Source of the DNA: Clostridia bacterium
GTDB taxonomy: Bacteria > Bacillota > Clostridia > UMGS1883 > UMGS1540
Length of the DNA stretch: 64,000 nt
Reading direction: 5' to 3'
NCBI GenBank assembly: GCA_045533905.1
Contig: JAZSIR010000016.1
Coordinates: 1-64,000, forward strand
The notes beneath the pieces are model-generated. The model was not told the DNA's origin. It saw nothing but the letters and a program-made list of their open reading frames with translations, and made no database searches. This document shows positions 164-14,960 of this stretch, piece after piece; within the stretch, counting starts at the first letter, position 1; each line of letters opens with the position of its first letter. The position numbers and the translations under genes were made by a program.

Positions 164-1042
164 TTATATATTTCTCGAGGCTTTCCGGTAGGCAAGCGGG
201 CCCATCCCCGTCAGCGTTTTGAAAACGCGGTTAAAATGCGTGGTCGAGCCAAAACCGACCGCTTCCGCCACATTCGTGATCTGCATATCCGTTTTATATA
301 AAAGCTTACGCGCTTCCTTCACCCGCACATTATTCAGATATTCGCTGAAGGAAATGCCGCACAGCTTTTTGAAGGTACGGGAAAAGTAGCAGGGGCTGAT
401 GTAAAATAAATCGGATATAGTGTTGAGCGAGAGATTTTCCGTATAGTGATTATTGATGTACCCCGTGATTTCCGCAATGGATTTATGGGTGGAGTTTGCA
501 TAGCTGTCAATGTCGCTGGCGGGGCGGCGGTTGTTTTTGTTGATGAAAAGAAGAAGCTGCATCAGCGAAAATTGCATATAGGGACTTTCACATATGTCGC
601 CTTTTTCCTTTTCAGCTACCATCGTTTCAAGAAGTGTTTCAACAAACTGTTTTTCTTTGGGGTTCAGAACAATGGTGTGAACAGCTTCATCGAAGCACAG
701 AAGCGGATTTTCTTCTTTGCAGACGGGAAGGAGGTCTTTTATAAATTCTTCCTTAAAATTGATAAGCAGTCTGTCATAGCCACATTCTGCGAAATTTGCG
801 GTACAGTGGATTTCGTAGGGCTTTATCAGCACAAGCGAGCCGCCTTCCACGTGGTAGGTTTTGTCTTTTATAAAATAGTATCGCTCGCCCGAATAGAGGT
901 AATATAGCTCATAGCAGTCGTGATAATGATACGTTTGTGACGGAATGGGCGAGGGGACAGAGGCACGCTCTATAAAAAAGGACGATTTATAGATGGCCTG
1001 AAAATTAAATTTTTCGCCGGTATTCGGGCTTGCTTTTTTCAT
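164..1042 (-). CDS. AraC family transcriptional regulator (cupin sensor + HTH)
   Basis: N-terminal cupin motif YHYHDCYELYY; C-terminal AraC HTH (ISPCYFSRTFKK...VGFGSTTHFNRVFK); divergent from catabolic operon. Confidence 0.93.
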   Translation of the reverse strand: MKKASPNTGEKFNFQAIYKSSFFIERASVPSPIPSQTYHYHDCYELYYLYSGERYYFIKDKTYHVEGGSLVLIKPYEIHCTANFAECGYDRLLINFKEEFIKDLLPVCKEENPLLCFDEAVHTIVLNPKEKQFVETLLETMVAEKEKGDICESPYMQFSLMQLLLFINKNNRRPASDIDSYANSTHKSIAEITGYINNHYTENLSLNTISDLFYISPCYFSRTFKKLCGISFSEYLNNVRVKEARKLLYKTDMQITNVAEAVGFGSTTHFNRVFKTLTGMGPLAYRKASRNI

Positions 1043-1223
1043 ATGGCATCCGCTCCTTATTTATAAGTATAATGCCTTCTTTGGAAAAAAACAAGTAAAA
1101 AATAAAAAACAATGCACCTAAAAAGACAAAATATGTAAAGAATGTGGCAAAAAGGACAATATAAGTGTTGAAAAATATATGAAAATTGTGCTAGTATAAA
1201 GAAAAATACGGAGGTGTTGTAAA

Positions 1224-2513
1224 ATGGCGAAAAAGAAAAGATATGTTCAGGTTGGTATTGGCGGCAGAGCCAGATTTTTCTACGAGGCGCTTGTAGGCAA
1301 GTATGCAGATACTTGTGAACTTACCGGTTTTTGCGATCTGAACCGTTCCCGTATGGAATATGCGCAGAAAGTGGTCAAAGAAAAGTACGGTTACGGCGAT
1401 ATCAAGATGTACGATGTGGAAGAATTTGAAAAGATGATTGAGGAACAAAAGCCCGATTATGTAATCGTAACTTCAATTGACAGAACACATCATAAATATA
1501 TTATAAAGGCTATGGAAATGGGCTGCGATGTTATTTCCGAAAAGCCGATGACGATGAGCGACGATAAGTGCCAGGCCATTTTGGATGCGGTAAAGCGGAC
1601 GGGCAGAAATCTCCGCGTATCGTTTAACTACCGCTACGCGCCGTATAATTCCAAGGTGCGCGAGCTGATTATGGCCGATACTATCGGCGATGTAAAACAG
1701 GTACATTTTGACTGGATGCTCAACACCGTGCACGGCGCCGACTATTTCAGACGCTGGCACCGCGACAAGCGTAACAGCGGCGGTCTTTTAGTACATAAAG
1801 CAACGCATCACTTTGACCTTGTAAACTTCTGGCTCGGTACAAAGCCGCGCGAGGTTTTTGCATACGGAGATCTGATGTTCTACGGCAGAGAAAATGCAGA
1901 AAACCGCGGCATTACCAAGTTCTATTACAGAACACACGGCTCCGAAAATGCCAAGGGCGATCCGTTCGCATTTGATATGCAGGGCAGCGAAAGCCTCGAA
2001 GGGCTTTACCTCAATGCAGAGAAGGAAGACGGCTACCTGCGTGACCAGAGCGTCTTCGGCGACGGCATCAGCATCGAGGATGTAATGAATGTGCTTGTCA
2101 AATATGAAAGCGGCGCACAGATGTCCTATTCGCTCAATGCATTTTCGCCGACAGAGGGCTTCCGTGTAGTCTTTACGGGCACAAAGGGCAGGCTGGAGCT
2201 CGTTGTTTCCGAAAGAGTTTATGTAAATGCGGCAGGCAGCAAGGATATTGAAGGCGCGGCTAAAAAGAGCCAGATTACTGTAACGCCTATGTTTGGCGAG
2301 CCGTATATTGTGGAAACGGAGAAAGCCGAGGGCGGCCACGGCGGCGGTGACCCCGTGCTTTTGGAAGATATCTTCGGCAATCCTCCGCACGATCCGCTCG
2401 GAAGAGCTGCTTCGCACGAGGATGGTGCCATGAGTATTCTTACAGGTGTTGCGGCCAATAAATCCATTGCAAGCGGTCTGCCTATAAAAATCAAGGATCT
2501 TGTAATATTCTGA
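1224..2513 (+). CDS. Gfo/Idh/MocA family oxidoreductase (YteT-like)
   Basis: Rossmann VGIGGR, ISEKPM, FNYRY, GGLLVHKATHHFDL, C-terminal GGHGGGD; RBS GGAGG upstream. Confidence 0.9.
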   Translation: MAKKKRYVQVGIGGRARFFYEALVGKYADTCELTGFCDLNRSRMEYAQKVVKEKYGYGDIKMYDVEEFEKMIEEQKPDYVIVTSIDRTHHKYIIKAMEMGCDVISEKPMTMSDDKCQAILDAVKRTGRNLRVSFNYRYAPYNSKVRELIMADTIGDVKQVHFDWMLNTVHGADYFRRWHRDKRNSGGLLVHKATHHFDLVNFWLGTKPREVFAYGDLMFYGRENAENRGITKFYYRTHGSENAKGDPFAFDMQGSESLEGLYLNAEKEDGYLRDQSVFGDGISIEDVMNVLVKYESGAQMSYSLNAFSPTEGFRVVFTGTKGRLELVVSERVYVNAAGSKDIEGAAKKSQITVTPMFGEPYIVETEKAEGGHGGGDPVLLEDIFGNPPHDPLGRAASHEDGAMSILTGVAANKSIASGLPIKIKDLVIF

Positions 2514-2526
2514 GGAGGAAGAAACC

Positions 2527-3285
2527 ATGACAATTGCGGCACTGAAAGAAAAACTGGAAAAAAGAGAAAAGCTGTATTCCACAATGCTGTGTCATATCGG
2601 CTACACGGGCCTTCCGGCACTTTATAAGGCAAACGGCCTTGACTTTCTGGTGATGGACCTCGAACACGGCTCCTTCTACCCTGAAAATATCGGCGACTTT
2701 ACGCAGATGTGCCATAAGGAAGAACTGCCCGTGATCGTGCGCGTGCAGGACTGCGAGTATCACTGTATCTCGAAGCCGATTGATATGGGAGCAGACGGTG
2801 TTCTGATTCCCCGCACAGAAAGTATGGAGCAGGTGGAAACTGCCATCTCGTCCATGCGCTTTTACCCCTACGGGAAGAAGGGCGTCGGCGGCAGAGCGCT
2901 GCTTCGCGCGGGCGAGGATATTTATGATATCAACAAAAACCGCCTCCTGTTTTTGCAGATAGAATCGGAAAAGGGCGTAAACCTTCTCGATGGGATTCTC
3001 ACAAAGTACGGCGACCAAGTTGCAGGCCTTATTATAGGGCCGTGCGATATGGCGGTTTCTATGGGCTGTGGCCTGGATGTAAATCACCCTAAAATGATTG
3101 AAAGCATCCGGAAAACCATCTCGATTTGCCAAAAGCACAAGAAATCCCTTGGTATCTTTATGGACGATGATACCGTTGCCGAAAGATGGCACAAAGAGGG
3201 AATGAATATTTACTGGGTGGGTACAGAACTCACAATGCTCGGCGCCGAGATTGCACGTAACCGCCGCAGAATCGACGAATTTTAA
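2527..3285 (+). CDS. HpcH/HpaI class II pyruvate aldolase family protein
   Basis: Motifs MDLEHG, VIVRV, QIES, IIGPCDMA; RBS GAGGAGG. Confidence 0.9.
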   Translation: MTIAALKEKLEKREKLYSTMLCHIGYTGLPALYKANGLDFLVMDLEHGSFYPENIGDFTQMCHKEELPVIVRVQDCEYHCISKPIDMGADGVLIPRTESMEQVETAISSMRFYPYGKKGVGGRALLRAGEDIYDINKNRLLFLQIESEKGVNLLDGILTKYGDQVAGLIIGPCDMAVSMGCGLDVNHPKMIESIRKTISICQKHKKSLGIFMDDDTVAERWHKEGMNIYWVGTELTMLGAEIARNRRRIDEF

Positions 3286-3304
3286 TCGAACGGGGGCATT
3301 TTAT

Positions 3305-4117
3305 ATGATACACGGATATGAAATGGAAATGAAGCCGTGGGAGGCATATATGGAACCCTTCCGGATTTTCGGCAATTTATATTTTGTAGGGAACCGGTAT
3401 GTGTCGTCGCACGTGATTGATACGGGAGAAGGCCTCATTCTGCTCGATTCGAACTTCCCCGAATGTACATTTCTTCTGACAGAGGGGATGCGGAAGCTCG
3501 GCCTTAATCCGTATGATATTAAGTATATTCTCCATTCCCATGGCCATTATGACCATATCGGCGGCACGAGAGCACTGACGGAGTATTTCGGCGCAAAAAC
3601 CATCATCGGTGCGCCCGATGTGCCAATGGTGAACGGCAGTGAGAATTTATCGTGGGCAGAAGAACTTGGTTTTAAGTTCTTTGAAGCGTTTGAGCCGGAT
3701 ATTCTTTTACACGACGGGGACATATTCGAATGCGGCAAAACGAAAATCCGTGCGGTGAGCACTCCCGGACACACCCCTGGAACAATGTCTTACTTTTTTA
3801 ATGTGGATGACGGCAAGACCACTTACATCGCAGGTATGCAGGGCGGCGCAGGCGTAAATTCGATGACAAACCGCTTCCTCAAGGCCTATAATCTCCCGAT
3901 TTCCTGCCGTGAGGACTTTGTAAATTCTATGGAAAAAATCAGGAATGAACATGTGGATATATTGATTGGCAATCACCCGGGAGATGTTGATACAAAGGGT
4001 AAGTATGAAAGAATGCAAAAAGGGGAGAAAAATCCCTTTATAGACAGCAGTGCGCTTGAAAGAAGACTTGCATATATTATGAATCAGTTTAACGAGATGG
4101 TTGCATCCGGAAAGTAA
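3305..4117 (+). CDS. MBL-fold metallo-hydrolase, subclass B3-like, no signal peptide
   Basis: PFRIFGNLYFVG, HSHGHYDHIGG (HxHxDH), TPGHTPG, GNHP; start moved to ATG 3305 (ORF-track start overlaps the previous gene). Confidence 0.88.
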   Translation: MIHGYEMEMKPWEAYMEPFRIFGNLYFVGNRYVSSHVIDTGEGLILLDSNFPECTFLLTEGMRKLGLNPYDIKYILHSHGHYDHIGGTRALTEYFGAKTIIGAPDVPMVNGSENLSWAEELGFKFFEAFEPDILLHDGDIFECGKTKIRAVSTPGHTPGTMSYFFNVDDGKTTYIAGMQGGAGVNSMTNRFLKAYNLPISCREDFVNSMEKIRNEHVDILIGNHPGDVDTKGKYERMQKGEKNPFIDSSALERRLAYIMNQFNEMVASGK

Positions 4118-4140
4118 TTAACGCTAAAAGGAGCATAAAA

Positions 4141-5172
4141 ATGGCAGTAGTTAAAATTAAAGAAATTAAAGAGCGCATATTAAACATATTTGAAAAAGCG
4201 GGCGTTCCTCATAGTGATGCAGTGCTTATCACAGATGTTCTGACCGATGCACAGATGAAGGGTATTGTAACACATGGCTATGTGCGTGTGAAAAAATACA
4301 TAGACTGCATAAAAAGTGGCGGAATAAAGAGTGAGGCAGAGATTAAAACAGTTGTTGATTTGCCGTCATGGGCACTTATTGACGGTGACGGCGGCTTAGG
4401 TATAGCAATATCGTGCAAAGCGGCTGAAATTGCCATTAAAAAGGCAAAGGAAACAGGCGTGGGTCTAGTTAATGTATTTAACAGCCATCACCTTGGCCCC
4501 GCAGGATATTATGCCGCTATGTGTGCTGATGAAGGTATGGTGGGTATGGCCATGAGTAACGGTGACGTATTGGTTGCCGCTACGGGAAGCTGTGAAAAGA
4601 CAATAGGTAATAACCCATTTGCATATGCAGTGCCGGCAGGAAAGTATGATAAAATTCTTTATGATATTGCTATGAGTATGGGCTCAGATATGAAAATCCT
4701 GCGTATGCTCGAAGAGGGAAAAGCAGTCCCCGAGGGTTGGATGATTGACTCCAAGGGACGTCCCTCAACAAACCCTGCGGATTATCCTGCGGGCGGAACA
4801 CTCCTTCCCTTTGGCGGATATAAGGGTTACGGTCTTGCTATGATGGTTGAAACCTTTGCAGGTGCACTTTCAGGCTCTGCATTGACAAAAAATATTCACG
4901 CATGGAATGCTGTCCCCGGTACATCAGGAAATGTAGGTCATTTCTTCATGGCACTTGATATTTCAAAAATTGCCGATGTCAGGGACTACGAAAAGAAGGT
5001 TGAGGGAATTATTGACGAGATAAAATCCTCAAATCTTGCAGAGGGTGCAGACGGCATTTACTACCCCGGAGAGAAGGAGCGTGTTACACAGCTCGCTTGC
5101 TTAGAAACAGGGGAGGTAGAGGTCGCGGATTCTACTATGCTTCTTTTAGAAGAGGCAGAAAAGTCCTTATAA
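4141..5172 (+). CDS. Ldh_2 family oxidoreductase (AllD/YiaK/ComC-like)
   Basis: GIVTHG, NSHHLGPAGYY, IGNNPFA, LLPFGGYKGYGLA, YYPGEKE. Confidence 0.9.
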   Translation: MAVVKIKEIKERILNIFEKAGVPHSDAVLITDVLTDAQMKGIVTHGYVRVKKYIDCIKSGGIKSEAEIKTVVDLPSWALIDGDGGLGIAISCKAAEIAIKKAKETGVGLVNVFNSHHLGPAGYYAAMCADEGMVGMAMSNGDVLVAATGSCEKTIGNNPFAYAVPAGKYDKILYDIAMSMGSDMKILRMLEEGKAVPEGWMIDSKGRPSTNPADYPAGGTLLPFGGYKGYGLAMMVETFAGALSGSALTKNIHAWNAVPGTSGNVGHFFMALDISKIADVRDYEKKVEGIIDEIKSSNLAEGADGIYYPGEKERVTQLACLETGEVEVADSTMLLLEEAEKSL

Positions 5173-5177
5173 AACAA

Positions 5178-5219
5178 AAAATGGGATGTAATGAAGTAGT
5201 CTTTTTTGCATCCCATTTT
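5178..5219 (+). terminator. Intergenic stem-loop (terminator or mRNA stabiliser)
   Basis: AAAATGGGATGTAA ... TTGCATCCCATTTT inverted repeat. Confidence 0.55.
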
Positions 5220-5242
5220 AAAAACACAACGTGGTGATTAAT

Positions 5243-6202
5243 ATGAAAAAGATTGTTGCACTCAGCAGTTTTCCGCACGAGCTTGGCTATGAAAAAGAAG
5301 TGTTCGGCAAGCTGGAAAACGTGGAATTTATTATTTCTCCCCTCAAAAATCCATCAGAAGTTATTAGGGTTGTGTGTGATGTAGATGTAATACTTTTTAC
5401 AGATGTGCCGATGGATAAGGAGTTTATAAATCAGCTTGAAAAATGCAGACTTATAATTCGCTACGGTATAGGCTATGATAATATTGATATAAAAAGTGCC
5501 GCTCAAAAAGGTATTATTGTGTGCAATGCCCCGAATTACGGCGTAATCGATGTGGCAGAGCACGCCGTAAGTCTCCTTCTTTCCTGCACGAAGCGCCTTA
5601 CCTATATGAGCGACTGCATAAGGGAGGGGAACTGGAGCACCGGCACAATGGGCTCCTCGCGAAGACTTTTTGGCAAAACGGTGGGCTTTGTCGGCTTCGG
5701 GAAAATCGCGAGATGTGTATGCGAGCGCACCAATGCTTTCGGAACAAAGGCGCTTGTGTATGATCCGTATGTAAATGCTGAAACGCTTTCGGCCTATCGC
5801 GCGGAAAGTGTGGATTTTGACACGCTTCTTAAAATGTCCGACTATGTGACCTTACATCTCCCGCTTTCGGAGAAGACGCGGCATATGTTCGGCGCAGAAG
5901 CATTTGCCAAAATGAAAACCACGGCCTGCTTTATCAATACGAGCCGTGGCGGACTTGTGAAGGAAGCGGACCTTGTGGATGCCCTTGAAAAAGGGGTAAT
6001 TGCAGGGGCGGGTCTTGATGTATTTGAGGATGAAAGCGGCGGGATCGATCGGCGCCTGCTTTCTATGCAAAATGTAGCGCTGACGCCGCATGTCGCCTGG
6101 AACACGTTCGAGGGAATGGAAGCACTGCACAAAGAGGTGACGGACAATGTCGTCCGTTTTCTCAGCGGCGAAACGCCGGAAAGCATTGTAAATGCTTTCT
6201 GA
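5243..6202 (+). CDS. D-isomer-specific 2-hydroxyacid dehydrogenase (CtBP/SerA-like)
   Basis: RYGIGYDNID, GFVGFGKIA, INTSRGGLV, AGLDVFEDE, LTPHVAW. Confidence 0.92.
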   Translation: MKKIVALSSFPHELGYEKEVFGKLENVEFIISPLKNPSEVIRVVCDVDVILFTDVPMDKEFINQLEKCRLIIRYGIGYDNIDIKSAAQKGIIVCNAPNYGVIDVAEHAVSLLLSCTKRLTYMSDCIREGNWSTGTMGSSRRLFGKTVGFVGFGKIARCVCERTNAFGTKALVYDPYVNAETLSAYRAESVDFDTLLKMSDYVTLHLPLSEKTRHMFGAEAFAKMKTTACFINTSRGGLVKEADLVDALEKGVIAGAGLDVFEDESGGIDRRLLSMQNVALTPHVAWNTFEGMEALHKEVTDNVVRFLSGETPESIVNAF

Positions 6203-6849: not shown

Positions 6850-7031
6850 GAACTTTTTTTGAAAATAGAACTTCAAAGAGGCGAGTGCACAACCAGGGCA
6901 AAAGGAAGCTGTAAAAGCGCAGAACAGGCCGCACATCCGGACAGTCTTTTTTGGAAACAATTGCATTTTGAAATTGGCTATATTAAAATAAAATTAGGGA
7001 ATGGAAGAACAATTTAGAGAAGAGGGTGTTT

Positions 7032-7310
7032 ATGGATTCAATTTTAGGCTTCTGGGATCAGATGACAGCAAATCCACTCTTGTTTATGGCCGTAACTTTA
7101 ACGCTCGGCGTTATCCTCGTTAATGGCTGGACGGATGCTCCGAATGCAATTGCCACCTGTGTGGTTACAAGATGTATGCCGCCGAAAGCGGCAATCCTGA
7201 TGGCGGCACTTTTCAATTTCCTCGGCGTTTTTGTAATGACACTTCTAAACGTCACCGTTGCCGAAACGATTACGAAAATGGTGGATTTCGGCGCGGATGC
7301 TGACCTGTGA
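7032..7310 (+). pseudogene. Inorganic phosphate transporter (PiT) N-terminal fragment
   Basis: PiT signature VNGWTDAPNAIAT and AALFNFLG, but stops after ~92 codons (PiT proteins are >300 aa). Confidence 0.8.
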
Positions 7311-7659
7311 GGATATTGTGCAGAAGATCTACATCAACAATATTCATTCGATTAATCCCGGGGCGATTGTGTTTGCGGAAAATATCGTAAAAGCTGCAGA
7401 GGTTTTAGGGGAGATTATGGGTGAATTTGAGAATTTCAAGAAATCAAAGAAGATTCAGCCGCTCATCGTAAAGCTTAACGACATCGAGGAGGAATGCGAT
7501 AAGATTTACCTCCATTCTGTACAAGATCTTATGAAAAATGCCACGGATATTCCGGAAACTATCGCATGGCGTGAAATATTCGATTGCCTGGAGTCCTGCA
7601 TCGATGCTTGTGAGCGTGTAAGTGAATGTATCGGCTCTGTCATTATGAAGAATACCTGA
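7298..7659 (+). pseudogene. DUF47/PhoU-like phosphate transport regulator, C-terminal fragment
   Basis: EDIVQKIYINNI...LNDIEEECDKIY...WREIFDCLESCIDACERVSECIGSVIMKNT resembles a DUF47 C-terminal half; N-terminus missing; start approximate. Confidence 0.75.
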
Positions 7660-7815: not shown

Positions 7816-8724
7816 ATGCAGTATGAAAATAACGTTATGTTCACAGGCACGATGCCTGCGCTTGTGACACCCTTTGATAAAAATTGCAAGCTGAAGAGAA
7901 ACACCGTAAAGGAACTTATCGACTGGCAACTTTCGGAAGGCTCCACAGGCTTCTATATCTGCGGCTGGACGGGGGAAGGCCCAGCGCTTTCTGCATCCCT
8001 TCGTATGGAAATGGCAGAAGCTACCGTGGAAGCGGTTGCAGGCCGCGGCGCAGTTATCAACCATATTGGTGCTGCCAACGTGTATGAAGCCATTGCGCTT
8101 ACAGAACATGCGGATAAAATCGGCGTAGATGCGGTGGCCTCTTTGGTACCTACATATTTCTACCAGCTCACGCCCGATGAACTTTTCGATTACTATAAAA
8201 CAATTGCAGCCCATACGGATAAACCCGTTTTAGTATATGCACTTCCTTCCGTGAAGGGTTTTGATTTCCCGACCTTTATGGAAAGACTTATGGAAATCCC
8301 GAACGTAATCGGCCTTAAGTGCACCATCGGGGATGATTTTATTCAGCATAAGCTGAAGGAAATCAACGGCGGCAACATCAACGTTATCAACGGGCCGGAC
8401 GAAACACTTATCTGCGGTCTCACCATGGGTGCAGACGGCGGTATCGGCTCCACCTATAACGTAATGCCCGGCTGGTTCGCAAAGCTTTTTGATTCGTTTA
8501 AAGCAGGTGACCTTGCCACCGCACAGGAATATCAGTATAAGGCAAACCGCGTAATTGACGCGCTCCTTCGTTTCTCGAAGTTCGGCGCTATCCGCGGCAC
8601 AAAAGCAGCACTCGCACTCAAGGGTTTTGATGTGGGCGATGCCATTTTCCCGGCACGTCCGTATGATAAAGATGAGCTTTTGGCATATAAGAAGGAACTT
8701 TCCGGCCTTGGCATCGAATTTTAA
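7816..8724 (+). CDS. DapA/NanA family class I aldolase (N-acetylneuraminate lyase-like)
   Basis: PALVTPF, GxTGE (GWTGE), Schiff-base Lys in IGLKCT, GPDE, GADGGIGSTYN. Confidence 0.88.
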   Translation: MQYENNVMFTGTMPALVTPFDKNCKLKRNTVKELIDWQLSEGSTGFYICGWTGEGPALSASLRMEMAEATVEAVAGRGAVINHIGAANVYEAIALTEHADKIGVDAVASLVPTYFYQLTPDELFDYYKTIAAHTDKPVLVYALPSVKGFDFPTFMERLMEIPNVIGLKCTIGDDFIQHKLKEINGGNINVINGPDETLICGLTMGADGGIGSTYNVMPGWFAKLFDSFKAGDLATAQEYQYKANRVIDALLRFSKFGAIRGTKAALALKGFDVGDAIFPARPYDKDELLAYKKELSGLGIEF

Positions 8725-8822: not shown

Positions 8823-9509
8823 ATGAAAAGAAGCGAAATCAATGCGGCCCTTCGGGAACTGGAGGAAATGACAAAGACCTGTAAGTTTCCGTTGCCGCCG
8901 TTTTGTCATTTTACCCCCGAGGAGTGGCAGGAAAAAGGGCACGAATACGACGAAGTGCGCGAGTGCATGCTCGGTTGGGATATTACGGATTATGGCATGG
9001 GAAAGTTTGACGAGCTCGGCTTTTCTCTCATCACCATTCGAAACGGAAACCGCGCTATGCAGGATAAATACCAAAAAGTGTACGCTGAAAAGCTTTTGTA
9101 CCTGAAGGAAGGGCAGTATTCGCCGAATCATTTTCATTGGTATAAGACGGAAGATATCATAAACCGCGGCGGCGGTAATTGCCTCATCCGCGTGTATAAT
9201 AGCCTGCCGAACGAAGAAATCGATTACGATTCTCCCGTCACAGTCTACACAGACGGGCATAGCCGCGTAGTGCCTGCAGGCACGCAAATTCGTTTAACAC
9301 CCGGGGAGAGCATTTTTATCCCGCAGTATCTCTACCATGATTTTGAGGTGGAAAAAGGCACAGGTCCGGTCCTTTTAGGTGAAGTGAGCCAGTGCAATGA
9401 TGACGAAACGGACAATCGGTTCAATCCTCCGATGGGGCGTTTCCCGGCCATCGAAGAAGACGAAGAGCCGTATCGGCTTTTGTGTAACGAATATCCGCCT
9501 GCGAAATAG
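8823..9509 (+). CDS. D-lyxose/D-mannose family sugar isomerase (cupin)
   Basis: MKRSEIN, LGWDITDYG, YAEKLL, SPNHFHWYKTEDIINRGGG, GEVSQCNDDETDNRF; RBS GGAGG. Confidence 0.9.
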   Translation: MKRSEINAALRELEEMTKTCKFPLPPFCHFTPEEWQEKGHEYDEVRECMLGWDITDYGMGKFDELGFSLITIRNGNRAMQDKYQKVYAEKLLYLKEGQYSPNHFHWYKTEDIINRGGGNCLIRVYNSLPNEEIDYDSPVTVYTDGHSRVVPAGTQIRLTPGESIFIPQYLYHDFEVEKGTGPVLLGEVSQCNDDETDNRFNPPMGRFPAIEEDEEPYRLLCNEYPPAK

Positions 9510-9522
9510 GGAGGGTAAAAAA

Positions 9523-10479
9523 ATGTATGATGTAATTGCCATCGGCGAAGTTCTTATCGATTTTGCGGCAAAAAGCACGGATGCGGACGGCTATCCCACC
9601 ATGTGCGCAAACCCCGGCGGCGCCCCGGCAAACTTTTTGGCGGCGGCAAGTGCATATGGCGCCAAAACGGCTTTTATCGGTAAGGTGGGCGAGGATACCT
9701 TCGGGCATCTTCTTATAAACACGCTCGAAAAAGCGGGAATAGATACAAAAGGCATCGCTTTGGACCCTTCTGTTTTCACAACGCTTGCGTTTGTAACTTT
9801 AGACGCGGCGGGCGACCGCGCCTTTAGCTTTGCCCGAAAACCGGGCGCGGACACGAAGCTTTCCTGGGAGGATGTGGACACCGATATGCTGGATGCGGCG
9901 AAGGTAGTACACTTTGGAACGCTGAGCCTTACGGACGAACCGGCGAAAACCGCCACGAAAGAAACGATTGCCTACGCAAAAGAGCATGGCAAACTCGTAA
10001 CCTTTGACCCGAATCTTCGAAAACCGCTTTGGCGGAGTATGGAGGAAGCAAAAGAAGCGATGCTTTGGGGTCTTACCGTGGCGGATGTAGTGAAGATTAG
10101 CGATGAAGAAGTGGAATTTCTCTGGAATGTAAGGCCTGAGGAGGGCGCGGAGAAACTCCTTTCGGAATATGGCGTGCGGCTTGCGATGGTAACGCGCGGC
10201 AAAAACGGATGCATTCTCAAAAACAGGAGGGCGGAGGTGCGCATCCATAGTCCGCACGTAGCGCCTATCGATACCACAGGCGCAGGCGATATCTTCGGCG
10301 GCAGCGCCCTTTCACGCATTTTAGAGCTTTCGAAGGATGTGTCACTTCTTGACGAAGAAGACCTTCTTTATATCGGCCGTTTTGCCACGGCGGCGGCAAG
10401 CCTTTCTACGGAACGCGCAGGGGGCATACCGAGTATCCCTCCTAAAGATGAAGTGCTTACTTGTATGGAAAAAATATAA
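9523..10479 (+). CDS. PfkB family carbohydrate kinase (fructokinase-like)
   Basis: GGAPANF, FDPNLR, DTTGAGDIFGG; start set at ATG 9523 after GGAGGG. Confidence 0.93.
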   Translation: MYDVIAIGEVLIDFAAKSTDADGYPTMCANPGGAPANFLAAASAYGAKTAFIGKVGEDTFGHLLINTLEKAGIDTKGIALDPSVFTTLAFVTLDAAGDRAFSFARKPGADTKLSWEDVDTDMLDAAKVVHFGTLSLTDEPAKTATKETIAYAKEHGKLVTFDPNLRKPLWRSMEEAKEAMLWGLTVADVVKISDEEVEFLWNVRPEEGAEKLLSEYGVRLAMVTRGKNGCILKNRRAEVRIHSPHVAPIDTTGAGDIFGGSALSRILELSKDVSLLDEEDLLYIGRFATAAASLSTERAGGIPSIPPKDEVLTCMEKI

Positions 10480-10514
10480 AAAGAGGCTGAAAACATATGT
10501 TTTCAGCCTCTTTT
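10479..10514. terminator. Bidirectional terminator
   Basis: AAAAGAGGCTGAAAAC-ATAT-GTTTTCAGCCTCTTTT between convergent genes. Confidence 0.85.
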
Positions 10515-11384
10515 CTACTTCGAAGAGGAACGCCTTGCAAGCTCGCGGTAGGCAAGCGGCGTCATAAGTTGCGCACGCTTAAAAACCTGAATAAAATACG
10601 AGGGACTTTCAAAACCGCAGGCGACGCTTACTTCTTGCACCGATTTTCCGGCTGACAGCAGAAGACAGGCGTTGGAAATGCGCACGGCATTTAAGTAGTT
10701 AAAGTATGTCATCCCCGTGAGGGATTTAAAAACGCTGCAAAAATGGTGTTTGCTGTAGCCCATAAAAGCCGCCACATCATCGAGCTTGATTTTTTCGTGG
10801 AAGTGTGCATCCGTCCACGAAACAAGTGCCTGCAAACCGGCATTATTTAAAGACGGAGGTGCCTCGGAAGACTTTTCGGCTTCATAGAGCGTGAAGTGGT
10901 GCACAAGGCTTAAAAGCGTGGGAATGCAAAACGCTAAATCTGCATCGTTTTCTATAAGCGTATTTAAAAACTTCCGGCATCCGTCATAGTCGGGGCATAT
11001 GCGCACGGCTTCCTCAATACTGCAGCTGAAAAGCGAAAAATAACGGTCAAGGTTCATGTAATGGGCAAAATGCGGCAGGCTGATTTTCAGCACTATCATT
11101 TCACCGCTACATGCGCGGATGTCATTCGAATGTACAATCTTCGGAGGAATAATAAACACCTGTTTTCCGCCGAGCTCGTATGTGGTGTCTTCAATAAAAA
11201 GTGTGCCCGAAAGGTTTTCGCAAAACAGAATTTCGATAGCCTTTGCATAGTGAAGTGGCACAATGTCATTTGACGGGAACCGCTTAAAGCAGATGCTGTA
11301 AGGCGCCTCAAGGGAAAAAACATCTTGTTCCTCAAAGGTGTTTGGCCTTTTGAGACAGTCATAATCGTATGAAATTTTGTTCAT
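10515..11384 (-). CDS. AraC family transcriptional regulator
   Basis: PLHYAKAIEI cupin; YSKHHFCSVFK...CGFESPSYFIQVFK HTH; start MNKISY after GAGGAA. Confidence 0.9.
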   Translation of the reverse strand: MNKISYDYDCLKRPNTFEEQDVFSLEAPYSICFKRFPSNDIVPLHYAKAIEILFCENLSGTLFIEDTTYELGGKQVFIIPPKIVHSNDIRACSGEMIVLKISLPHFAHYMNLDRYFSLFSCSIEEAVRICPDYDGCRKFLNTLIENDADLAFCIPTLLSLVHHFTLYEAEKSSEAPPSLNNAGLQALVSWTDAHFHEKIKLDDVAAFMGYSKHHFCSVFKSLTGMTYFNYLNAVRISNACLLLSAGKSVQEVSVACGFESPSYFIQVFKRAQLMTPLAYRELARRSSSK

Positions 11385-11504
11385 GCCACTTCCTCCTCTC
11401 GCGCATCTTACTAAAAGTATAGCACTTCTCGCTGCAAAAAGCAAGAAACTTTCGCAAAAGACAAGCGCCACGCGATATCGCGCCGAATTTAAACGGGAAT
11501 AGTA

Positions 11505-11533
11505 TTGACAAAATGGGAGAAATATGGTACAAT
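11505..11533 (+). promoter_or_regulatory. SigA promoter of TIM-SIS-YjbQ operon
   Basis: TTGACA-17nt-TACAAT with extended TG. Confidence 0.75.
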
Positions 11534-11597
11534 ACCAGAAACGAAAGAGAATTAAAAGCGGAAGAAAACAAAACGAAACTAAAATAGGAGGGAAAGT

Positions 11598-12299
11598 ATG
11601 TATAAAGGTATCACAATTAAACCGCCGTTTTTCGAAGTAGGCCCCAAGGCATATCTCTACGGAGAGGAAATGCTGGCGCTTGCAAAGGTAATTGATAAAA
11701 CGGCCATGAAATATGATGTAGACGTTATTGTAACGCCGCAGTACACCGATATTAAACTTCTTGCGGATAACACCGAGAGAATTTTGGTGTTTGCACAGCA
11801 TATGGATTCTCTGCCGATCGGCCGTGGCCTTGGCAGCGTTTTACCGGAAGCCGTAAAGGCGGCAGGTGCTGTGGGCGTTATGTTAAACCATGCAGAAAAG
11901 CCGATTTCTTTTGAAGAAATTGAAAAAACCATCAGGCGTGCCGACGAAGTGGGCCTTGCCACCATCGTTTGTGCCGACACGGTAGAAGATGTAAAGGCCA
12001 TTGCCAAAATGGGCCCGAACCTCATCGTAGCCGAGCCGACAGACCTTATCGGCACCGGCCAGACGAGTGATTCAAACTACGTGCTCGACACGATCCGCAC
12101 CGTAAACGAAATCAATCCTGATATTATGGTACTGCAGGGCGCAGGCATTTCGAACGGTCAGGACGTATATAACACCATAAAGCTTGGCGCACAGGCCACG
12201 GGCTCTACAAGCGGCATTATCAAAGCGGCGGATCCCTATGCTATGGTAGAAGAAATGCTTTACAATCTCAGAAAGGCATGGGACGAACTTCACAAATGA
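11598..12299 (+). CDS. Triose-phosphate isomerase family protein (short, archaeal-type paralog)
   Basis: GPKAY (Lys), FAQHMD, LNHAEK (His), VAEPTDLIGTG (Glu), GAGIS; 233 aa. Confidence 0.87.
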   Translation: MYKGITIKPPFFEVGPKAYLYGEEMLALAKVIDKTAMKYDVDVIVTPQYTDIKLLADNTERILVFAQHMDSLPIGRGLGSVLPEAVKAAGAVGVMLNHAEKPISFEEIEKTIRRADEVGLATIVCADTVEDVKAIAKMGPNLIVAEPTDLIGTGQTSDSNYVLDTIRTVNEINPDIMVLQGAGISNGQDVYNTIKLGAQATGSTSGIIKAADPYAMVEEMLYNLRKAWDELHK

Positions 12300-12892
12300 G
12301 AGAAGAAGCGAAAGCGGCGGCTATAAACGCATATAAAATTGAAAGTGAATGCCTTATGGAAATGCTTTCGTATTTTGATGAGGACGCGTTTTCAAAGGCA
12401 GTAGAGCTTCTTGCGGGTGCTACGCGCATCGGCACCTGCGGTTGCGGCCATTCCGGCATTATGTGCCAGCATTTCTCGCACCTACTTTGCTGCATTGAGC
12501 GCCCTTCGCGCTTTATTTCGCCGGCAGAAGCCGTGCACGGCGCAACAGGCTTTTTAGAGGCGGGGGACGTAATGGTATTCGCTTCCCGCGGCGGCAAAAC
12601 GAAAGAGCTTTTGCCGATTATGGAAATCTGCAAAAAGAAAAATGTGAAAACGATTACCATCACGGAAAATCTCGAATCTCCGCTCGCACTCGATGCCGAT
12701 GTTGTGTTAAAGCAGTACGTTAATCGCGAAACTGATAAGTACAATGCACAAGGCACAACCTCATCCACCGCGCTTTGCATGATTTTCCATGCACTGCAGA
12801 CGGCGCTGATTGAGGAAACCGATTACCAAAATGAACAATTTGCCTTAATCCATCCCGGCGGGGCCGTGGGGGAAAGGCTAAATAAAAAATAG
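12296..12892 (+). CDS. SIS domain sugar-phosphate isomerase (KpsF/GutQ-like, no CBS)
   Basis: GCGHSG, PAEAVHG, ASRGGKTKE, TTSSTA, FALIHPGGAVG; ATGA overlap with TIM gene. Confidence 0.88.
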   Translation: MREEAKAAAINAYKIESECLMEMLSYFDEDAFSKAVELLAGATRIGTCGCGHSGIMCQHFSHLLCCIERPSRFISPAEAVHGATGFLEAGDVMVFASRGGKTKELLPIMEICKKKNVKTITITENLESPLALDADVVLKQYVNRETDKYNAQGTTSSTALCMIFHALQTALIEETDYQNEQFALIHPGGAVGERLNKK

Positions 12893-12904
12893 GAGGAAAG
12901 AAAA

Positions 12905-13525
12905 ATGGAATTTAAAGTGTATCAGAAAGAACTGGAATTACAATCGAGAGGTTGGATTCCCACATTTCACGATGTGTCGAAGGAAATTATCGAAATCGTA
13001 AAGGCTTCCGGCGTTAAGAACGGTACTGTATGTATCGCTTCCCACCACACCACCTGCTCTGTTATGATTCAGGAATGCTCGCACGATATCGATTCTTTTG
13101 ACCTCGAATTTTTGCAGCATGACCTTCTCGACATCATGCGCAAAATGATTCCGGACTTTGCAGAAGAACATCAGTACCGTCATCCGGGCCCGATTCACGC
13201 ACAGTTCGGCAGATACGTAAACGAACCCGGCGACTACACCAGTATGAACACAGACGGTCACCTTCGCAGCGTTTTCTTCGGCAGAAGCGAAACGATGACG
13301 ATTAAGGACGGCGTCCTCGATGGCGGCGAATTTGCCCACATCTACTTCATCGACTGGGACCATGTACGCGCCCGTCGCCGTCAGCTCAATGTAACCGTTA
13401 TGGGTACCACAGAGGATGTAGAAGACAGAAAGTGGAATAACGGCGAAGTGATCAACACACTCCACAAGTACACCGACGAAGAAAAGGCATACGATGTGCA
13501 CTACGATCTGCAGCTGAAGAGATAA
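12905..13525 (+). CDS. YjbQ family (UPF0047) protein
   Basis: SHHTTCSVMIQE, NTDGHLRS, DGVLDGGEFAHIYFIDWD..R.R motifs. Confidence 0.85.
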   Translation: MEFKVYQKELELQSRGWIPTFHDVSKEIIEIVKASGVKNGTVCIASHHTTCSVMIQECSHDIDSFDLEFLQHDLLDIMRKMIPDFAEEHQYRHPGPIHAQFGRYVNEPGDYTSMNTDGHLRSVFFGRSETMTIKDGVLDGGEFAHIYFIDWDHVRARRRQLNVTVMGTTEDVEDRKWNNGEVINTLHKYTDEEKAYDVHYDLQLKR

Positions 13526-13538
13526 CAGAAGAAATCAA

Positions 13539-13568
13539 AAAGAGCTCTCGAATTTTCGAGAGCTCTTT
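13539..13568. terminator. Bidirectional terminator
   Basis: AAAGAGCTCTCGAA-TT-TTCGAGAGCTCTTT. Confidence 0.8.
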
Positions 13569-13579
13569 ATATTTGCTTT

Positions 13580-14275
13580 TTAGATGATGCGCCGTGCCGC
13601 ATACAGCGTGCGGTTGGCCATACTGTCGATACTGATTGTTCTGCCCGTTTGCGGCGCGTGGATGTACTGGTTATTTCCTACATAGATGCCCACATGGCCT
13701 GCACTGCGGAAGAAGACAAGGTCGCCGGGGGCGAGGTTTGCGCGGGAAACAGAACGTCCCATCGCAATCTGCGAGTAGGTTGTACGCGGCAGATAGATGC
13801 CGAAATGGCGGAATACATACTGCACAAAGCCGCTGCAGTCAAAGCCTGCGGGCGTGGTGCCACCCCAAACGTAGGGAACACCGAGGAAGTTCTTCGAGTA
13901 TGCAATAATCTGCGAAGCGAGCGAGGCATTCGGTGCTGCTGTATACGAACCGGAGGAAGAGGAACTCCTACCCGAGGAGGAACGTGCTACCGGTGTCGGA
14001 TCGGGAACAAGGCTTCTGTCAAAAACGATTAAATCCTTGTGCACATATCCGATCTTGTCTTCAATACGGACTTTGCACCAGGAACCTTCTGTGGTGATAA
14101 CGGTGACGGGATCTGCAAGATAAATTTCAGTCAGAATTTTCGCGTCCATCGCCGGCACCTGGCGGACGTTGATAACATCGCCTGCCGCAAAGCCGGTGGT
14201 ATCGGCGAGGGCGGTAAATCCGAAAAGAAGCATACCGGCCACAAATAAAACTAGGAAAACGGCAAATTTTTTCAT
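13580..14275 (-). CDS. SH3b + NlpC/P60 peptidoglycan endopeptidase
   Basis: Signal peptide, INVRQ SH3b, Ser-rich linker, PYVWGG...FDCSGF...HVGIY...IHA. Confidence 0.93.
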   Translation of the reverse strand: MKKFAVFLVLFVAGMLLFGFTALADTTGFAAGDVINVRQVPAMDAKILTEIYLADPVTVITTEGSWCKVRIEDKIGYVHKDLIVFDRSLVPDPTPVARSSSGRSSSSSGSYTAAPNASLASQIIAYSKNFLGVPYVWGGTTPAGFDCSGFVQYVFRHFGIYLPRTTYSQIAMGRSVSRANLAPGDLVFFRSAGHVGIYVGNNQYIHAPQTGRTISIDSMANRTLYAARRII

Positions 14276-14342
14276 AAAAACCTCCGTAGAAAACCAAGAT
14301 GCATTTTAGTATACCATACCTTTTAAGGCTTGTCAAATCAGA

Positions 14343-14960
14343 TTAGAAAAGGCGGCGTACTGTCGAAATCGGTCGGTTTAAGGGATCGACGGAAACACTG
14401 CGGCCTGTCTGCGGCGCGTGGATATATGTACCGTTTCCGGCGTAGATGCCTACATGGCCGCCGCCGCGGAAAACGATAAGGTCACCGATCTGCATATCTT
14501 CGATGCTTACGGGTGTGCCCGAGTACATCTGCGAATAGGATGTACGCGGAAGAGATACGCCAAAGTTTGCATATACATATTTGGTGAAACCGCTGCAGTC
14601 AAAGCCGTAAGGGGAGGAACCACCGTATACATATGGAACGCCGAGGAAGCTTTTGGCGTATTCCAAAACAGCATCGCCCATAGTAGCTGCAGCCGTCTCG
14701 GCGGCCTCATCGGGTGTTACGGAGACATAGTTTCCGTAAATGTAACCGGTTTTGTCACCCATAAGAATGCGACACCAGCCACTTTCATAGCCGACAACCG
14801 TAACATTCTCGCCGTAGAAAAGCTGACCTATAACGCCGGCGCCGGGTGCTTCGCGCACATTCAGAACGCTTGCTGTAACCGTGCCGGTATCCGCCAGAGC
14901 GGCGGTGGATGTAAATAAAACGATAGCGGCAGTCAGTACCGCACAAACTTGCTTTTTCAT
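14343..14960 (-). CDS. SH3b + NlpC/P60 peptidoglycan endopeptidase (tandem paralog)
   Basis: Signal peptide, LNVRE SH3b, PYVYGG...FDCSGF...HVGIY...IHAP. Confidence 0.93.
   Translation of the reverse strand: MKKQVCAVLTAAIVLFTSTAALADTGTVTASVLNVREAPGAGVIGQLFYGENVTVVGYESGWCRILMGDKTGYIYGNYVSVTPDEAAETAAATMGDAVLEYAKSFLGVPYVYGGSSPYGFDCSGFTKYVYANFGVSLPRTSYSQMYSGTPVSIEDMQIGDLIVFRGGGHVGIYAGNGTYIHAPQTGRSVSVDPLNRPISTVRRLF

Follow-up and report, generated by a model that had tools for sequence, protein, structure and literature searches.

Three genes in a 64,000-nucleotide stretch of DNA from a Clostridia bacterium (assembly GCA_045533905.1, contig JAZSIR010000016.1, positions 1 to 64,000; hereafter the window) belong to a widespread, conserved three-gene module. 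They encode a paralogue of triosephosphate isomerase (TIM; 11598-12299, 233 residues), a single-domain KpsF/GutQ-like SIS protein (12296-12892, 198 residues) and a long protein of the YjbQ/UPF0047 family (12905-13525, 206 residues), all on the forward strand. The TIM paralogue is predicted to isomerise a ketose 1-phosphate between C2 and C3, the SIS protein to convert a 3-hexulose 6-phosphate to a ketohexose 6-phosphate, and the YjbQ protein to act as a metal-dependent internal carbonyl isomerase. A sequence-only reading of the window had already seen in these genes an uncharacterised sugar-phosphate system whose linkage should recur in other genomes, and both points are supported. Among the best 80 of at least 588 confirmed YjbQ matches, a set that is 90-97% identical, a SIS gene was found in 74 loci and a TIM paralogue in 67, in varied gene orders and on both strands. 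Across 41 genomes, our own and its relatives, YjbQ occurs in 20, TIM in 21 and SIS in 22, in nearly identical sets; the genomes are kin and partly incomplete, hence no statistic is claimed.

The same reading had joined the trio to the three genes on its left, a D-lyxose/D-mannose isomerase family gene (8823-9509, forward), a PfkB kinase gene (9523-10479, forward) and an AraC regulator gene (10515-11384, reverse), with the isomerase and kinase as entry steps and AraC as sensor. All six reading frames are present in the sequence, as are the promoter, the ATGA overlap of TIM and SIS (12296-12299) and the terminators, one of which, a two-way terminator at 10478-10515, lies between PfkB and AraC. 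As one system, the six genes did not hold together. No lyxose isomerase or PfkB gene occurred in the 80 YjbQ loci, and no TIM, SIS or YjbQ gene in the 80 isomerase loci (the best 80 of 359 metagenome loci; 35 of the 80 reach at least 4.5 kb downstream). AraC-like matches were found in 4 of the 80 YjbQ loci, at 23-26% identity. Among the isomerase loci, 23 of 80 have PfkB as the next gene 3′ and 12 have a full-length AraC orthologue (40-47% identity) upstream in divergent orientation, and further neighbours include an aldose epimerase (10 of 80) and a GH2 mannosidase-type protein (6 of 80). The AraC of the window has no orthologue in the 40 related genomes, and synteny with the closest locus, L004, begins at 11466. 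In L004 a different, intact AraC gene ends just before the trio promoter, and the last ten codons and stop of that gene persist in the window at 11470-11502 (forward), a remnant that marks a rearrangement breakpoint directly before the trio promoter. Because the locus counts, the AraC distribution, the synteny break and the AraC remnant agree, we regard the three left-hand genes as a separate unit, probably a mannose unit brought in by rearrangement. GC content overall and at third codon positions gave no separation of the two units.

What weighs against two units, and for a model in which the lyxose-type isomerase and PfkB feed SIS, TIM and YjbQ under AraC, is that the genes adjoin in the window, with AraC divergent from the trio, and that all seven lyxose-isomerase genomes among the 41 also carry the trio. 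However, the other six lyxose isomerases are 53-55% identical, lie on other contigs and all come from a family in which 17 of 21 genomes have the trio, so that the overlap is expected. Given this, the absence of co-location in both locus sets, the lack of AraC orthologues and the break in synteny, the six-gene model is very improbable. The unit at 8823-11384 resembles the known mannose route through D-lyxose/D-mannose isomerase and fructokinase: it has a PF07385 isomerase (324 bits, above the cut-off), a PfkB kinase nearest to fructokinase and an AraC gene, and its relatives add the aldose epimerase and GH2 neighbours. It differs in that both enzymes fall under the named NCBIfam cut-offs (251 versus 350 bits for NF051472; 202 versus 450 bits for PRK09434, the best match of the kinase), hence its sugar is not fixed.

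Other genes recur beside the trio. The YjbQ loci contain an FGGY kinase in 46 of 80, plus 4 of a second group, a FucI-like isomerase in 23, plus 9 that are AraA-like, a fructose-6-phosphate aldolase (FSA) or transaldolase in 33 and a DeoR regulator in 25. FGGY and FucI-like genes are present in 16 and 12 of the 41 genomes, respectively, all inside the YjbQ-positive set. A single YjbQ gene is present in our own genome (1.57 Mb, 95.5% complete), which also carries orthologues of the FucI-like isomerase (86% identical) and the FGGY kinase (53-64%) as a pair on contig C14, and of DeoR (42-56%) on contig C16. We infer that this isomerase and kinase, on other contigs than the trio, are the actual entry enzymes. 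For the FucI-like protein of G000, neither a solved relative nor a plasmid match was found. Most locus-linked FSA/transaldolase proteins, at least 90% of 32 aligned, belong to the aldolase type with Gln/Tyr; neither FSA nor transaldolase was found in our own genome or in 8 congeners. Twelve loci (L015, L016, L019, L026, L030, L033, L047, L052, L053, L063, L076 and L079) hold two YjbQ paralogues, of which the short one follows a divergent TIM with a GTK/GVK motif and the long one follows SIS. A search for fusions gave one SIS-YjbQ singleton (P0122, 413 residues) among 8 longer matches, too weak for use, and no TIM-YjbQ fusion among the same matches.

The pairing of TIM with YjbQ extends over several phyla. 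TIM lies directly 5′ of YjbQ in 41 of 50 loci retrieved with a Shinella TIM and in 53 of 56 retrieved with an Enterococcus YjbQ, and among the exceptions are two unrelated TIMs as well as fragments and contig ends. Five layouts can be told apart. Layout A has a Gat-type phosphotransferase system (PTS), a class II aldolase, a TIM that keeps the strand-1 Asn, and YjbQ. Layout B (15 of 50 loci) combines a polyol MFS or ABC transporter, an SDR protein, a psicose-3-epimerase-like protein, TIM, YjbQ and FGGY, with no aldolase; for its 3-epimerase-like gene no tie to apiose isomerase was obtained. In layout C, TIM and YjbQ accompany DhnA, FGGY, an AraA-like isomerase and DeoR, and layout D is the trio itself. 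Aldolases of the dihydroxyacetone phosphate (DHAP) type accompany TIM-YjbQ in many distant loci (class II in 48 of 56, DhnA in 21 of 50). Layout E (23 of 54 new loci) consists of PTS, YjbQ, Rpe and HxlB and has no TIM; its YjbQ proteins group into a single clade with support in a quick tree, which was used solely for this clade, and HxlB passed the TIGR03127 cut-off in both copies tested. Operons of this kind (L090:9360-13773, L197-L218 and L228), with the order PRD-PTS(Gat)-YjbQ-Rpe-HxlB and without a kinase, dehydrogenase or TIM, occur in Gilliamella, on Enterococcus plasmids, and in Streptococcus, Vibrio and others, and are a candidate route from tagatose 6-phosphate to fructose 6-phosphate.

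The three proteins differ from their characterised relatives at informative positions. The TIM paralogue scores 201 bits with the archaeal-type model NF003302, above its cut-off of 132, and retains the catalytic residues (K17 and H98 in 164 of 164 homologues, E146 in 163), as the sequence-only reading had recognised; what that reading missed is the loss of the strand-1 Asn, which is Gly15 here and Gly in 111 of 164 homologues, the 53 that retain Asn being those of layout A loci. A canonical tpiA, whose separate existence had been proposed as a check, lies on contig C8, flanked by pgk and gpmI, and the trio TIM is thus the second TIM of the genome and not the glycolytic copy. The TIM of ery loci is no orthologue of it (27% identity over 100 residues, E 0.001). 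Since that protein is bacterial-type (41% identical to tpiA, with Ser at the strand-1 Asn position) and non-orthologous, the loss of Asn in the two looks convergent.

The SIS protein was correctly described as CBS-less and KpsF/GutQ-like: it is a single domain, with the Listeria single-SIS protein 3fxa as its nearest structure. It shares the fold, the phosphate loop and both His motifs with 3fxa, HxlB and KdsD/KpsF, although it scores below the KdsD, KpsF and GutQ cut-offs (111/204, 106/481 and 102/505 bits) and below that of the HxlB model TIGR03127 (46 versus 160 bits), and unlike KpsF-type proteins it has no CBS domain. The loop Lys is His52 and HGDLG has become HGATG, the Asp position being Ala/Gly; we take the Lys and the HGDLG motif to be catalytic in the KdsD/KpsF/GutQ arabinose 5-phosphate isomerases.

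The YjbQ protein scores above the PF01894 cut-off (85.7 versus 27 bits), narrowly misses TIGR00149 (64.7 versus 67.75) and has a C-terminal extension of about 40 residues. Its predicted model (pLDDT 90) matches YjbQ structures only (Z 15-18.5), and fold searches returned no characterised enzyme with this fold, an Atlas search giving YjbQ clusters only. It is indeed His-rich (13 His in 206 residues), as the earlier reading had stressed, but merely H48 and H119 among these are invariant. The residues H48, D73, H119, D152, R155, R157 and R159 are invariant in 253 of 253 sequences, and C51, E57, Y91 and N115 are found in 252; identity across genera is 88-97%, with about 20 near-invariant polar residues. 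The positions of His48, Cys51 and His119 are shared with ST2072, in which we take them to be zinc ligands. These residues predict a metal site of His-Cys-His and a phosphate site formed by Arg, and the proposal that YjbQ supplies a metal-dependent catalytic step is likely. Its assignment as an aldolase or epimerase is less likely than one as an isomerase because separate aldolases (class II FBA, DhnA, FSA) and epimerases (psicose-3-epimerase-like, Rpe) already adjoin YjbQ in related loci. The sugar-operon subfamily is only 19-27% identical to the solved members of the family and differs from them in the further invariant residues Y91-x-x-PG, E57, D73 and R159, in addition to the extension found here. 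The family spans bacteria and archaea and was present in 10 of 14 control genomes; a profile search of representatives gave mostly fragments without gene context. Several YjbQ/UPF0047 structures have been solved and, to our knowledge, no main function has been settled. One study reports that YjbQ complements thiamine auxotrophy as a thiamine-phosphate synthase (PMC3020362), and a preprint states that yjbQ “has no clear function” (bioRxiv 10.64898/2026.06.26.734693).

How might these enzymes act together? Counting from the phosphate, KdsD/KpsF enzymes and HxlB move a carbonyl between carbons 4 and 5, Rpe epimerises carbon 3 when the carbonyl is at 4, and cleavage occurs at carbonyl 5 by FSA and at carbonyl 2 by DHAP aldolases. 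TIM-type enzymes move the carbonyl between carbons 2 and 3, as LerI does (PMC10733421). In layout D, the positions of TIM, SIS and the aldolase leave one gap and one gene, and we thus assign to YjbQ the move from carbon 3 to carbon 4. The resulting proposal, that the trio walks the carbonyl of a ketohexose 1-phosphate away from the phosphate in three isomerisations, is quite possible, although we would not call it probable. The FucI-like isomerase and FGGY kinase of contig C14 would make the ketohexose 1-phosphate; TIM would move the carbonyl from C2 to C3 by LerI/EryH chemistry, with the Asn-to-Gly change accommodating a longer chain; YjbQ would shift it from C3 to C4 at the putative metal site; and SIS would shift it from C4 to C5, the KdsD/HxlB position, yielding a ketohexose 6-phosphate. 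The chain would thereby be read from its opposite end, and neither a redox step nor cleavage would be involved. Because FSA and transaldolase were not found in our own genome or its congeners, the final product should be a central metabolite, and because SIS is kept while FSA is absent in our own genome, a hexose ending as fructose 6-phosphate fits best. Under a same-face hydrogen-shift rule, D-tagatose 1-phosphate alone of 8 hexuloses maps onto fructose 6-phosphate; that these two compounds are the substrate and product of the walk is doubtful.

The other layouts would use parts of the same chemistry. In layout B, the TIM and YjbQ moves would bring a tetrulose or pentulose 1-phosphate to a central metabolite. 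In layout E, YjbQ and Rpe would feed HxlB a 3-hexulose 6-phosphate, D-tagatose 6-phosphate alone mapping onto the HxlB substrate by the hydrogen-shift rule, and since HxlB passes its cut-off YjbQ likely supplies this compound. A broader reading takes the YjbQ subfamily as a new class of metal-dependent internal-carbonyl isomerase and combines the walk with a two-step pentose version (TIM-YjbQ alone, L-ribulose 1-phosphate to D-ribulose 5-phosphate) and a third route from tagatose 6-phosphate through YjbQ-Rpe-HxlB; as a whole this combination is somewhat unlikely. If the walk is true, it would mean a new isomerase fold and a new way for rare ketoses to reach glycolysis, employed by cultured Bacilli, Proteobacteria and Chloroflexota as well as by many gut Clostridia that are uncultured. 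Cultured bacteria that carry the YjbQ gene include Lacticaseibacillus paracasei, Paenibacillus elgii, Faecalicatena contorta and Gilliamella. The YjbQ subfamily gains a fixed metabolic setting and, with a substrate predicted from context, a cheap and specific assay.

Several observations weigh against the walk. Its mechanism is drawn from gene context and family chemistry, and the hydrogen-shift rule reproduces LerI and HxlB (2 of 2), which are two controls only. Layout E has no TIM, so that its YjbQ clade would have to act elsewhere, on C2 to C3 of a 6-phosphate, and layout A retains the TIM Asn and includes an aldolase for which the walk has no use. The best-scoring models for the FGGY kinase are of the xylulokinase type (315 versus 132 bits for fuculokinase), and xylulokinase-type kinases phosphorylate the far end of the sugar; a structure search with the FGGY kinase returned only distant kinases and no close solved relative. 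The NagA-like (19 of 80), NagB-like (17 of 80) and ceramidase-like (14 of 80) neighbours in YjbQ loci are not explained in detail. The NagB-like protein (318 residues; for example L083:5993-6946, reverse strand, on C12 of G000) has no Pfam match for the family, and its name comes from a weak match (E 0.15) to a glucosamine-6-phosphate deaminase structure. Finally, our own genome has the Leloir pathway (galK, galT), a 1-phosphofructokinase-family kinase over its cut-off and two class II aldolases, which could process galactose or tagatose more simply; no GatZ was found in this genome.

Some of these same features would suit a walk in the reverse direction, from a ketohexose 6-phosphate, which by the hydrogen-shift rule would be D-tagatose 6-phosphate, to fructose 1-phosphate. 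The input would be supplied by the kinase, or by an amino sugar via the NagA/NagB-like pair, and the product would pass to 1-phosphofructokinase or a DHAP aldolase. The xylulokinase-like FGGY, the 1-phosphofructokinase-family kinase and the DHAP-type aldolases of distant TIM-YjbQ loci agree with this direction, and the hydrogen-shift rule pairs fructose 1-phosphate with tagatose 6-phosphate. We nevertheless consider it quite unlikely: the aldolase of the trio loci is the Gln/Tyr FSA and not the DHAP type, FSA takes fructose 6-phosphate-type substrates rather than DHAP, polyol loci have no aldolase, and the substrates of KpsF-like SIS proteins have the D-erythro configuration adjoining the phosphate. 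An ancillary role for YjbQ, as a ring-opening or mutarotase protein beside a TIM and a SIS that perform all isomerisation, would fit the loci with paralogues beside both TIM and SIS, and mutarotases are common in sugar operons. This role is improbable, since the TIM of polyol loci alone cannot bring a pentulose 1-phosphate to a central metabolite, nothing else in the PTS-YjbQ-Rpe-HxlB loci could feed HxlB, and the high identity and many near-invariant polar residues of YjbQ fit a core catalytic step.

The trio could also be a tetrose module, in which TIM is LerI and SIS is DerI (L-erythrulose 1-phosphate to D-erythrulose 4-phosphate to erythrose 4-phosphate). YjbQ would then be either an upstream enzyme for a plant sugar with a hydroxymethyl branch (apiose/hamamelose type), acting as an aldolase or rearranging the skeleton, or an EryC-like epimerase. 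Many trio loci come from herbivore-gut assemblies, judging by assembly titles, and rearrangement of hamamelose 5-phosphate would also yield the 3-hexulose 6-phosphate of HxlB. Tetrulose phosphates are proven substrates of TIM-type isomerases (PMC10733421), and LerK-EryH-EryI lies downstream of apionate routes (PMC13753588). Against these points, the polyol, DhnA and most PTS layouts retain TIM-YjbQ but lack SIS, the 3-epimerase-like gene and YjbQ occur together in the 15 layout B loci, no formaldehyde-handling gene appears among the recurrent annotated neighbours, and the TIM, with Gly at the position of Ser in the ery-locus protein, is no orthologue of EryH. A tetrose module is thus unlikely, and all other explanations combined are improbable.

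The walk has its closest parallel in the EryC-EryH-EryI system of Brucella and rhizobia and the LerI-DerI system of Mycobacterium smegmatis. These systems share with the module an FGGY kinase, an epimerase, an Asn-less TIM paralogue and a second isomerase, and they share with the proposed walk a carbonyl that moves away from the phosphate (PMC10733421, PMC5468441). Layout B parallels a rhizobial locus of the order FGGY-dehydrogenase-TIM barrel-TIM-RpiB (EryA/B/C/H/I), with YjbQ at the RpiB position; RpiB itself is found in 1 of 245 loci. Unlike the Ery/Ler modules, the trio has an archaeal-type TIM, places YjbQ rather than RpiB (EryI/DerI) next to it, and adds a third isomerase, SIS, which fits a longer chain. 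By analogy, the trio would work like an extended LerI/DerI module and yet is no member of that group. Operons of the fuc/ara type likewise use a FucI/AraA-like isomerase and an FGGY kinase for entry and are controlled by DeoR, whereas in our module the ketose phosphate would go to three isomerase-type genes, and the aldolase is optional and absent from our own genome. A literature search found no paper on a TIM-YjbQ module, a result limited to its coverage, since most subscription journals lie outside it.

The trio has its own sigma-70-type promoter, TTGACA-17-TACAAT (11505-11533, forward, 11 of 12 matches), which is retained in L004. A scan gave 8 promoter-like sites versus 9.8 in shuffled sequences, so that this match counts by its position and not by enrichment. 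Two direct repeats of AAACGAAA, 32 bp apart (11539-11578, forward), sit just 3′ of the −10 box. At least two copies of AAACGAAA precede 8 of 65 transcript-leading core genes, whereas the counts are 0 of 408 for other leading genes and, in our own genome, 1 of 744; the motif was derived from the window and L004, which are therefore not independent in these counts. Copies are often spaced by 11, 22 or 32 bp, and such an operator position and spacing are typical of DeoR-type repressors. On this basis the repeats are likely the operator through which a DeoR-family protein represses the trio operon, and the regulator of the trio is probably the DeoR protein rather than the window AraC, which has its orthologues beside the lyxose/mannose isomerase. 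Upstream of the isomerase-kinase pair on C14 no copy of the operator was found. Four other clustered sites in the genome (on C1, C4, C16 and C17) were rejected as LacI-like palindrome, terminator-region, coding-region or unrelated matches. A two-way intrinsic terminator (13539-13568) closes the trio.

The remaining observations concern the surroundings of the two units. Immediately 5′ of the lyxose isomerase lies a DHDPS/NanA-family aldolase gene (7816-8724, forward) that is below all named cut-offs and has relatives in 4 of the 80 trio loci and 2 of the 80 isomerase loci. Further upstream, at 7026-7659 (forward), a 94-codon start of a PHO4 phosphate transporter overlaps a 133-codon C-terminal piece of DUF47 in another frame, which resembles a deleted or fused pit-DUF47 pair. 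The region 164-6202, in which an AraC gene is divergent from genes for a Gfo/Idh/MocA oxidoreductase, an HpcH/HpaI aldolase, a B3-like metallo-beta-lactamase-fold protein, Ldh_2 and a 2-hydroxyacid dehydrogenase, is a probable sugar-acid operon; its metallo-beta-lactamase-fold protein is below all bla cut-offs and has relatives in 4 of the 80 trio loci. On the 3′ side of the trio, two tandem SH3-NlpC/P60 cell-wall hydrolase genes (13580-14960, reverse) are syntenic in L004.

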